Virus record (IMG/VR): IMGVR_UViG_2654587686_000016
Source: a virus
Lineage: Duplodnaviria; Heunggongvirae; Uroviricota; Caudoviricetes
Length of the DNA: 13,445 bases
Strand: one strand, 5' to 3'
Shown here: positions 9,556 through 12,027 of the stretch, piece after piece
Numbering within the stretch: position 1 is the first letter of the stretch
How the letters are laid out: every line of letters begins with the position of its first letter
Notes under the pieces: generated by a model
Database searches by the model: none
Told to the model about the DNA's origin: nothing
Seen by the model: the letters and a program-made list of their open reading frames with translations, nothing else
Translations under genes and position numbers: made by a program

Positions 9556-12027
9556 ATGAGTAAAGTCTTTATTTGCGCCGCCATTCCGGACGAACAGGCA
9601 ATAAAGGAAGAAGGTGCAGTCGCTGTAGCCACTGCCATTGAAGCCGGTGATGAATGTCGCGCCCGCGCAAAATTTCACTGGCAATTCCTGGAACATTATC
9701 CGGCTGCTCAGGACTGCGCTTATAAATTTATTGTCTGCGAGGATAAACCTGGCATACCCCGCCCTGCCCTCGATTCATGGGATGCTGAATATATGCAGGA
9801 AAACCGCTGGGATGAGGAGTCTGCTTCTTTTGTCCCGGTTGAGACTGAATCCTATCCGATGAACGTCACTTTTGACAAGCTGGCCCCTGAAGTACAGAAC
9901 GCTGTCATGGTTAAGTTCGACACATGTGAAAACATCACCGTTGATATGGTTATTAGCGCACAGGAATTGTTGCAGGAAGACATGGCAACATTCGACGGAC
10001 ATATCGTTGAAGCGTTGATGAAAATGCCAGAAGTTAACGCCATGTATCCGGAGCTTAAGTTGCACGCCATTGGGTGGGTTAAGCATAAATGTATTCCTGG
10101 TGCTAAATGGCCCGAAATTCAGGCAGAGATGCGCATCTGGAAAAAACGTCGCGAAGGTGAACGCAAGGAAACCGGAAAATACACGTCTGTTGTTGATCTC
10201 GCCCGCGCCAGAGCCAATCAACAGTACACTGAAAATTCAACAGGAAAAATCAGCCCGGTCATTGCTGCCATTCATCGCGAATACAAGCAGACATGGAAAA
10301 CACTGGATGACGAACTGGCCTACGCTCTCTGGCCTGGTGATGTGGATGCCGGAAACATTGACGGCAGCATCCATCGCTGGGCAAAAAATGAAGTTATCGA
10401 CAACGGCCGCGAAGACTGGAAGCGTATCTCGGCATCAATGCGCAAACAGCCTGATGCCCTTCGCTACGACCGCCAGACTATTTTTGGCCTTGTCCGTGAA
10501 CGTCCGATCGACATTCACAAAGATCCCGTAGCACTGAACAAATATATCTGCGAATACCTGACGACAAAGGGCGTGTTTGAGAATGAAGAAACAGACCTGG
10601 GCACTGTTGATGTTCTCCAGTCATCAGAAACACAAACTGATGCAGTGGAAACTGAGGTATCTGATATCCCAAAAAATGAAACCGCGCCGGAAGCTGAACC
10701 ATCTGTAGAGCGTGAGGGGCCGTTCTACTTCCTCTTCACCGACAAGGATGGCGAAAAATACGGTCGCGCAAACAAACTTTCTGGTCTGGATAAGGCGCTG
10801 TCTGCTGGGGCTACTGAAATCACGAAAGAAGAATATTTCGCCCGCAAAAACGGTACATACTCAGGTTCACAACAAAATACTGGTGCATCTGACACGACCG
10901 CACAACCAGGGTCAGTAAAAGTTACCGCTGACGAAGTAAACAAAATTATGCAGGCAGCCAATATCAGCCAGCCTGACGCCGATGAACTGCTTGCAGTATC
11001 ACGTGGTGAATTTGTTGAAGGGATTAGCGACCCGAATGATCCGAAATGGGTTAAGGGGATCCAGACCCGCGATTCTGTGAACCAGAACCAGCAAGAAACG
11101 GAACAGAACGACCAGAAAGCGGAACAAAACAGCCCAAATACGCAACAAAACGAGCCAGAAACGAAACAACCTGAACCAGTAGTGCAACAGGAACCGGAAA
11201 AGATCTGCACCGCCTGCGGTCAGAGCGGTGGCGGCAACTGCCCTGATTGTGGTGCGGTGATGGGTGACGCAACATACCAGGAAATATTCGATGGAGAGAA
11301 TCAGCCTGAAGTTCAGGAAAATGATCCGGAGGAAATGGAAGGCACTGCGCATCAGCACAAGGAGAACACTGGCGGCAATCAGCATCATGCCAGCGATATT
11401 GAAACTGGCGAGGCGTCAGATCCCTTAATTAAGGCGAACGGTCATCATAATCTCACATCCACCAGCAGAGCGGGGATTCATCTGATGATCGACCTTGAAA
11501 CCATGGGAAAAAATCCCGATGCCCCGATTATCTCAATAGGTGCAATATTTTTCGATCCGCAAACCGGAGATATGGGACCGGAATTTAGTAAGACTATCGA
11601 TCTGGAAACTGCTGGCGGAGTCATTGATCGGGACACCATTAAATGGTGGCTTAAGCAATCACGCGAAGCGCAATCTGCCATTATGACCGATGAAATCCCG
11701 TTAGATGATGCACTGTTACAATTGCGGGAATTTATCGACGAAAACTCCGGTGAATTTTTTGTTCAGGTCTGGGGAAATGGAGCCAACTTCGACAACACGA
11801 TTTTGCGCCGTTCATACGAACGGCAGGGGATCCCCTGCCCGTGGCGTTACTACAACGATCGCGATGTACGCACAATCGTTGAGCTGGGGAAAGCCATAGA
11901 CTTCGATGCCAGAACGGCTATTCCATTCGAAGGTGAGCGCCATAATGCACTTGATGACGCCCGTTACCAGGCAAAATACGTTTCAGTTATCTGGCAAAAA
12001 CTGATCCCGAGTCAGGCTGATTTTTAA
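9556..12027 (+). CDS. Large exonuclease (823 aa) in the RecE position: C-terminal DnaQ-like DEDDh 3'-5' exonuclease domain, central Q/E/N-rich linker and a CxxC...CxxC zinc ribbon
   Basis: Long ORF with GAGG 9 nt upstream. C-terminal motifs MIDLETMG (Exo I, D-x-E), [13 protein letters not shown] (Exo II) and [11 protein letters not shown] (Exo III, H-x4-D) are seen directly. Zinc ribbon [16 protein letters not shown] at nt 11207-11257. The low-complexity linker has a T-poor DNA repeat at about 11090-11200. Confidence 0.8.
   Translation: [823 protein letters not shown]

Follow-up and report, generated by a model that had tools for sequence, protein, structure and literature searches.

A RecE-family prophage protein whose nuclease appears to have been exchanged for a DexA-like exonuclease domain

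The IMG/VR virus record IMGVR_UViG_2654587686_000016, a stretch of 13,445 nucleotides (nt) that we call the window, carries at 9556-12027 (+) an open reading frame (ORF) of 823 amino acids (aa), which starts with ATG and has a GAGG about 9 nt upstream. Judged by identity and architecture, its product is almost certainly the intact version of ydfE, a prophage pseudogene of Escherichia coli K-12, and joins a RecE-family scaffold to a DexA-like DEDDh domain. The first 625 residues read as a non-catalytic scaffold of the RecE family and the last 190 or so as a DEDDh domain of the T4 DexA/DnaQ-like kind. We take the protein for a paralogue of RecE whose effector domain was swapped: the PD-(D/E)xK nuclease has been exchanged for a DexA-like exonuclease, and recT has gone from the neighbourhood too. 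The explanation that best accounts for the findings, and which we advance tentatively, is that of a RecE-scaffold 3′-5′ exonuclease at work in a phage that would depend on host RecBCD and RecA.

The ORF is 100% identical at the DNA level to the gene for RefSeq protein WP_001358072.1 in strain RM14723, and its product can be dissected into modules. The N1 module (aa 1-260, YdfE_N; 9556-10335, +) has a confident fold over aa 1-205, and its residues 1-257 are 98% identical to the K-12 Qin pseudogene ydfE. The M module (aa 261-460, YdfE_C; 10336-10935, +) is homologous to the central region of RecE and consists of folded blocks at aa 245-340 and 390-432 with a disordered acidic stretch, aa 346-383, between them; YdfE_N and YdfE_C are scaffold-module names taken from newer Pfam releases. 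The L module (aa 461-629; 10936-11442, +) contains a conserved 14-residue motif, a linker rich in Q, E and N, a zinc ribbon and an acidic tail. A previous interpretation made without database searches, hereafter the sequence-only reading, had recognised both the linker and the ribbon, and both are there: the low-complexity linker spans aa 501-547 (11056-11196, +), with Q, E and N making up 55% of residues 501-540, and the ribbon is C551-x2-C554-x7-C562-x2-C565 (11206-11250, +). Its motif also occurs in RecE and at the C-terminal end of a Dam-like methyltransferase encoded beside the anti-T4 exonuclease EcD, and its four cysteines are invariant among 70 unique homologues. The DEDDh domain, assigned by Pfam to the Rv2179c-like/T4 DexA family, closes the protein at aa 642-813 (11479-11994, +).

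The kinship with RecE is confined to part of the protein. Residues 262-625 align with residues 278-591 of K-12 Rac RecE (BLASTP, E 2e-60), with near-identity around the 14-residue motif, the zinc ribbon and the acidic tail. The NCBIfam model for exodeoxyribonuclease VIII (PRK09709) matches residues 246-626 over positions 271-603 of its 877, at 270.9 bits, which is below the 1269-bit equivalog cut-off, and nucleotide similarity to K-12 recE is found only in codons 475-625 (nt 1425-1874 of the gene; 76.6%). Because the similarity to recE stops at aa 625, we place the swap junction at about that residue, where the nuclease domains begin. The RecE PD-(D/E)xK nuclease (PF12684; RecE 592-866) was not detected in the protein, either as a Pfam match or by BLASTP, whose alignment ends at RecE 591. 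Likeness to RecE thus covers the central region and the zinc-ribbon linker, and does not extend to the nuclease domain, to an equivalog-level score or to an adjacent recT. The sequence-only reading had set the protein against RecE as a 3′-5′ enzyme in its place, a contrast that it would have abandoned had the N-terminal region proved to be canonically RecE-type. The part about the nuclease stands, since the domain is DEDDh, but the rest of the protein is not foreign to RecE, and the N-terminal region is RecE-type in part: residues 262-625 are, while residues 1-257 are those of K-12 YdfE.

The exonuclease domain itself was correctly identified by the sequence-only reading from its D-x-E, D and H-x4-D motifs. 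Pfam PF16473 (Rv2179c-like) matches residues 642-813 over profile positions 2-177 of 177 (E 5.5e-67; 225.3 bits against a cut-off of 27), and the motif set is complete, with D646-x-E648 (Exo I), D746 (Exo II) and H796-x4-D801 (Exo III). These five catalytic residues are invariant in the 70 unique homologues. A sequence search of the PDB reached a single solved relative, T4 DexA (8KEL, E 1.4e-6), to which D646/E648 align as D7/E9, D746 as D119 and H796/D801 as H186/D191. Both profile score and catalytic motifs place the domain in the PF16473/DexA family of DEDDh enzymes, and it probably has 3′-5′ exonuclease activity on DNA.

If the C-terminal domain has been exchanged in this protein, are other domains found on the same scaffold? 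An exhaustive phmmer search of 1.84 billion cluster representatives, with residues 1-625 as the query, returned only 239 clusters, and the 50 long ones were dissected with blastp and phmmer. Their C-termini fall into a DEDDh domain (7), the RecE PD-(D/E)xK nuclease (12; for example P0143), a Rad52-like domain (17), another domain (7) and none of these four (7). The scaffold begins with either YdfE_N or the RecE N-terminus, continues with the common central module and ends with the linker, and all combinations of N- and C-terminal modules were seen; in P0129, for instance, a RecE-type N-terminus (99%) is joined to a DEDDh domain 95% identical to that of the window protein. The Rad52-like domain (P0130, P0135, P0138, P0154, P0167, P0182, P0189, P0200, P0210, P0240, P0254, P0256, P0261 and P0269) is about 200 aa long and carries the motif GEAQKKSLTDALKKALSLLGF. 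It is assigned on the grounds of consistent sub-threshold Pfam matches, Rad52_Rad22 being the best match in 10 of 14 members, together with a fold search: with an AlphaFold2 model (predicted local distance difference test, 79.9), the top six PDB matches in Foldseek were human RAD52 (E 1.6e-6, probability 1.00) and the next had E 0.04. By sequence the domain found nothing in the PDB, and a profile comparison with gp36 of Salmonella phage epsilon34 was not significant (E 0.5), the signature helix alone being aligned. As modelled, 17 of the 50 long relatives would therefore end in a Rad52-fold annealase domain and not in a nuclease.

Gene context tracks the type of effector domain. Where the scaffold ends in PD-(D/E)xK, recT comes next (K-12 and locus L118), whereas after the DEDDh, Rad52-like and fourth-domain forms xis/int or small genes come directly. 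Taken together, the scaffold appears to behave as a platform for interchangeable DNA-end enzymes. We found no description of this four-way swapping of effectors, Rad52-fold fusions included, in the literature searched. A bolder proposal, which we regard as doubtful, is that the RecE/YdfE N-terminal region is a portable delivery platform that tethers exchangeable DNA-end enzymes to a common target (DNA ends, SSB or the replisome) through the zinc-ribbon/acidic linker, and that the DEDDh version is a working annealase-free device for recombination or replication restart cooperating with RecBCD and Chi.

Some further observations concern the relatives. In locus L004 the Rad52-like scaffold gene (5650-7986) lies between a gene of weak Mu-Gam likeness, before it, and a Sipho_Gp157 gene, after it. 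The label 'exonuclease' that PHROGs gives to the Rad52-like scaffold proteins was probably carried over in error from the common N-terminus. The fourth type of C-terminal domain (about 200 aa; P0127, P0260 and P0268; loci L119-L121), with xis/int directly after it, gave no Pfam or PDB match and no nuclease signature. 'RecE-2' proteins lacking a nuclease domain are mentioned in PMC12315714, and the fourth-domain proteins probably correspond to them. In the P4-like element L114, a Dam-like methyltransferase of the D12 class (5187-6167, -) adjoins an EcD-like gene (6401-6991, -), and its C-terminus has the same zinc-ribbon motif as RecE and the window protein (tblastn to the linker of the latter, E about 1e-9 to 2e-11). 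Different DNA enzymes appear to have this ribbon in common, as a portable module.

A partner annealase was sought by several routes. None of the roughly 20 plausible ORFs of the window gave a Pfam match to RecT, Erf, Bet or Rad52. A tblastn panel of RecT, lambda Bet, lambda Exo, Gam, a Rad52-like domain and the RecE nuclease, run as queries, found no match in 80 related IMG/VR loci (892 kb), in the complete genome of phage mEp460 or in the right 24 kb of phage Tritos; Erf and Sak4 were covered through Pfam and annotation only. The statement of the sequence-only reading that the window has no RecT/Bet-like ORF is thus upheld. It had also allowed for an annealase hidden in the N-terminal region, and none was found there, the scaffold giving no fold match, or for one lying just outside the regions inspected. 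The latter can be discarded for RecT, Bet and Rad52-like proteins by the tblastn results, and also by the annotation of loci L001, L003 and L005. After the DEDDh form, recT is absent in the window, in L001, L003, L005 and L006, in the 80 IMG/VR loci, in mEp460 and in the right arm of Tritos. What did not hold is the notion that such a lack is odd, as about half of lambdoid phages and prophages have no annealase and the gene is of the 'nuclease-only' Tritos type, according to PMC12315714.

The position of the gene is that of recE. The gene is the last early-left gene ahead of xis and int, precisely where recE-recT stands in Rac, as the sequence-only reading had noticed. Directly downstream come the excisionase gene xis (12089-12358, +) and the gene for a lambda-type integrase with Arm-binding and catalytic domains (12327-13445, +), which marks the prophage end. 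Since only 61 nt separate the exonuclease stop (12027) from the xis start (12089), there is no space for an annealase gene between them. Upstream, the leftward operon begins with DUF1391 (ydfA-like) and ydfC, followed by the small RNA DicF (8861-8912, +; Rfam, 76.7 bits), the cell-division inhibitor gene dicB (9087-9275, +; Pfam) and a ydfD-like gene (DUF1482; 9272-9463, +) immediately before the exonuclease gene, which PHROG 2082 matches over its full length. A promoter-like site, TTGACA-17-TATAGT (11/12; 7775-7803, +), lies upstream of the whole operon and is likely to be the early-left promoter for all genes from the ydfA-like one through DicF, dicB, ydfD and the exonuclease to xis and int. 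It is the sole strong plus-strand site in the window, and no site as strong was found directly upstream of the exonuclease gene. The order agrees with that of K-12 Qin (ydfA-ydfB-ydfC-dicF-dicB-ydfD-ydfE-intQ) and with that of the plaque-forming phages mEp460 and Tritos. An ORF of 201 aa at 8888-9493 (-), antisense to dicB and ydfD, has no Pfam match, is unannotated in every matched genome and is probably not a gene.

The gene is very common and, as far as its sequence tells, functional and under purifying selection. Among 80 relatives 78 are intact at 823 aa, and the pairwise ratio of nonsynonymous to synonymous substitution (dN/dS) is 0.13 for N1, 0.32 for M, 0.45 for L and 0.28 for DEDDh. 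Of 5426 complete E. coli genomes, 3537 contain the gene at full length, taken as a coverage of 80% or more. The DEDDh module was found in 4046 of the 5426 (75%), at 8111 places and up to seven times per genome, and the Rac-type recE nuclease plus recT in 1728 (32%), mostly in single copy. The form known from textbooks, RecET, is in the minority among the versions of this gene family that E. coli carries. Viable plaque-forming phages, mEp460 and Tritos, carry the gene as well. The interest of the DEDDh module lies in part in these numbers, since it occupies more than twice as many E. coli genomes as classical recE-recT. The swapping of effectors also offers a concrete handle on the N-terminal two-thirds of RecE, a region that improves linear-linear recombineering.

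How can a phage live with a nuclease and no annealase? A possible answer comes from the survey of 325 lambdoid phages by Zheng, Casjens, Davidson, Amundsen and Smith (2025; PMC12315714). It reports DnaQ-like 3′-5′ nucleases in some Rec modules, and defines as 'Tritos' type a Rec module that has a nuclease only, without anti-RecBCD functions. The class has four members, each with at least four top-strand Chi sites. [quoted passage not shown] The window conforms to this type as far as it reaches: an early-left nuclease gene, no single-strand annealing protein (SAP), SSB or anti-RecBCD gene, and abundant top-strand Chi. It contains seven Chi sites in 13.4 kb, at 544 and 596 (+) and at 1002, 1186, 6491, 11459 and 13275 (-), against about 0.13 per strand expected from base composition; in the conventional lambda orientation these are five top and two bottom. 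The octamer GCTGGTGG inside the exonuclease gene (11459-11466, -) is one of the five minus-strand sites. Top and bottom counts are 7/2 in mEp460, 8/2 in the right arm of Tritos and 207/31 in the 80 related loci.

A DEDDh nuclease that takes the place of RecE and has no annealase is therefore on record already: as a Tritos-type module, in Pfam, in PHROG 2082 and in RefSeq, where the identical protein is annotated 'exonuclease' or '3′-5′ exonuclease'. The gene TRITO_27 is the sole recombination gene of Tritos, the 'exodeoxyribonuclease' of mEp460 is the equivalent of the window gene, and GenBank records carrying the gene include, besides these two phages, several prophages associated with Shiga-toxin phages.

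We propose the following scheme. As the distal gene of the dicB operon, the gene would be expressed only upon induction or infection, and its DEDDh domain would remove nucleotides from DNA 3′ ends by a two-metal-ion reaction. The lack of annealase, SSB and RecBCD inhibitor, together with correctly biased Chi sites, leads us to infer that the phage relies on host RecBCD and RecA for the recombination that lambdoid replication and packaging require. The exonuclease might then assist in the processing of DNA ends, for instance by trimming 3′ tails to give RecBCD flush ends, and not be half of a RecET-like annealing pair. RecBCD loads onto flush ends and is kept from reloading by 3′ overhangs, unless these are trimmed by 3′-5′ exonucleases (PMC5592934), so that a 3′-5′ nuclease would be a sensible accessory for a phage living off RecBCD, Chi and RecA. 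Conversely, RecET/Red annealing is depressed by a 3′-5′ single-stranded DNA exonuclease (PMC13048471); such a nuclease is a poor partner for RecT, and recT and the RecE nuclease may for that reason have been replaced jointly. The domain also belongs to a recombination module elsewhere, that of epsilon34 (gp34, 56% identity, E 2e-71). If the enzyme does cooperate with RecBCD and Chi, it would be a new component of the strategy of phages that use host recombination.

Several points weigh against this explanation. E. coli owns ExoI, ExoX, ExoVII and SbcCD for trimming 3′ tails, and a phage copy is not obviously needed. Part of the Chi strand bias may stem from codon usage and from the orientation of the genes, and redundancy among the 80 loci is high. 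The scaffold is without a fold match in structure searches, and no functional study of ydfE was found in the literature searched. The Pfam family takes its name from an RNA exonuclease, so the substrate may be RNA. Finally, in PMC12315714, one-gene Rec modules are called 'somewhat suspect', DnaQ-type genes near int are said possibly not to be recombination genes, and DnaQ-like 3′ exonucleases are described as mostly inhibiting, not promoting, recombination. We consider the RecBCD-assisting role of the exonuclease, taken by itself, as possible but on the doubtful side.

Other functions for the same enzyme have to be weighed against it. The protein could scavenge nucleotides or serve host takeover as DexA does, degrading host or broken DNA to mononucleotides after induction, with the scaffold being incidental. 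T4 DexA is indeed the only solved structure reached by sequence, and the protein retains the Asp equivalent to DexA D90, which is reportedly required for the form active on unmodified DNA. Identity to DexA, however, is only about 24-28%, and the closest homologue (56%) sits within a recombination module. Moreover, the other effectors found on the RecE-family scaffold to which the DEDDh domain is joined are recombination enzymes, and temperate lambdoid phages are not known for degrading the host chromosome. We consider this function unlikely; host takeover and anti-defence, both of which the sequence-only reading had entertained, drew no support from the analysis.

The scaffold itself suggests an annealase-independent recombinase. 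Resection of 3′ ends would expose 5′ tails that anneal spontaneously or with host help, while the scaffold holds the ends together, giving a RecT-free joining of linear molecules such as phage concatemers or ends. Full-length RecE boosts linear-linear recombination (PMC11611040), and the scaffold is common to RecE and the window protein; sister proteins bear an annealase on that same scaffold, and assembly by homology with a 3′-exonuclease works in vitro (SENAX). Against this, 3′ exonucleases in general reduce recombination and the Chi content points toward RecBCD and RecA. Nor do we know of a phage system shown to use 5′-tailed intermediates, and we think this account distinctly unlikely.

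Defence by the prophage was considered as well, on the model of the 'HREX' anti-T4 exonuclease EcD (Kang et al. 2025, PMC12153337), which is reported to digest T4 DNA and to protect cells. Incoming phage DNA modified with 5-hydroxymethylcytosine (5hmC) would be destroyed and the lysogen protected, which would account for up to seven copies per genome. We recovered the EcD sequence via the published primers: it has 189 aa, contains Ala78 as the paper states and occurs in P4-like elements. Its domain is 38% identical to that of the window protein (E 2e-37), and many prophages, including some that are probably defective, have kept the gene intact. In the HREX signature the residue equivalent to DexA D90 is lost, and W152 is kept together with an acidic residue at the D169 position (PMC12153337). 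EcD has Ala78, Trp and Glu in these columns, whereas the window protein keeps Asp and has Tyr766 and Lys, the D169 column lying in a loop where the alignment is uncertain. The setting differs too: EcD is encoded by a stand-alone gene beside a Dam-like methyltransferase in a P4-like element, while the gene in the window closes a repressed dicB operon and lacks a strong promoter to itself. The only match returned by PADLOC was a weak one of generic DEDDh kind, and a defensive function seems to us very unlikely.

It is highly improbable that the enzyme is an RNA exonuclease like Rv2179c of Mycobacterium tuberculosis, which would degrade host RNA or trim RNA 3′ ends, such as those of DicF or the dicB-operon transcript. 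The family name and a weak RNase_T Pfam match (E 4e-4) would agree with it, and so would the processing of DicF from the dicB-operon transcript, known from K-12; but the PDB sequence search found no Rv2179c at E<=1 and did find the DNA enzyme DexA, EcD and DexA are DNases, and the other scaffold effectors and the epsilon34 context concern DNA recombination. That the gene is a decaying remnant, a dead chimera of illegitimate recombination between Rac-like and other prophages, can be dismissed almost outright: the K-12 copy is an IS2-disrupted pseudogene and the origin is mosaic, but 78 of 80 copies are intact with dN/dS of 0.13-0.45 and invariant catalytic residues, and the gene is found in plaque-forming phages and in 75% of complete E. 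coli genomes.

Mapped with Pfam and Rfam and by genome comparison, the window (13.4 kb) represents the early region of an E. coli prophage of the lambdoid Rac/Qin/Tritos type; its counterparts are prophages beside potC in strain PEC240, and the 823-aa gene has its counterpart in the prophage at tRNA-Ser/mtfA of strain RM14723. The map starts with a DUF968/ydfU-like gene (269-1306, -; Pfam) and hokD/sok, the sok antitoxin RNA (1826-2001, -; Rfam, 119.8 bits) overlapping the hokD leader. Between hokD and the replication genes sits an island of two genes with low guanine-plus-cytosine (GC) content (2389-4024; GC about 0.34-0.41). Then come DUF977, a replication gene with helix-turn-helix/DnaD-like features, ydaT-like and ydaS/cro-like genes (Pfam), and racR (7190-7666, +). 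The island comprises a Beta_protein gene (PF14350, 365 aa; 2389-3486, +) and, convergent to it, a sce7726-like gene (3446-4024, -). The first was tried as a Red-beta annealase and rejected: its match is to PF14350, with PD-Lambda-2_C matches in addition, it lies on the other side of the immunity region within the low-GC island, and tblastn found no similarity to lambda Bet. The PADLOC match of the Beta_protein to PD-Lambda-2_C is strong (E 1.4e-40) and the sce7726-like gene matches 'cll' (E 2.4e-28), so that the two genes together look like a candidate moron directed against phages. An IS1 element splits the Beta gene in strain PEC240.

Comparison with known systems summarizes what sets the protein apart. 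T4 DexA (8KEL/8KEN) belongs to the same DEDDh family, with aligned catalytic residues and a conserved D90 equivalent, but it has extra loops, stands alone and comes from a lytic phage, and its W152 and D169, which are implicated in recognising 5hmC, are Tyr and Lys in the window protein. With epsilon34 gp34 the Pfam family is shared and the 56% identity extends over the whole DEDDh domain; gp34, however, is a stand-alone protein of 182 aa encoded among Abc2, SSB and a Rad52-family annealase, whereas the window domain is joined to a scaffold of 625 aa and lacks all of these partners. Rac RecE (exonuclease VIII) and the window protein are both encoded right before xis-int, with a homologous centre and a near-identical linker and zinc ribbon. 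They differ at the N-terminus, which is of Exonuc_VIII type in RecE and YdfE_N here, and at the C-terminus, where RecE has a PD-(D/E)xK 5′-3′ exonuclease for double-stranded DNA followed by recT, and the window protein a DEDDh 3′-5′ domain and no recT. K-12 ydfE has dicB and ydfD as neighbours in common with the window gene but is truncated by IS2E after codon 257, so that everything from the M module onward is missing. The nearest known system is Tritos: TRITO_27 also has 823 aa and is 92.8% identical overall and 96.9% in the DEDDh domain. Tritos and mEp460 share with the window the operon DicF-dicB-ydfD-exonuclease-xis-int, the absence of SAP, SSB and anti-RecBCD genes and the richness in Chi. 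The window differs from Tritos as a prophage copy with another moron load, the Beta_protein/sce7726 island, and in nothing essential.

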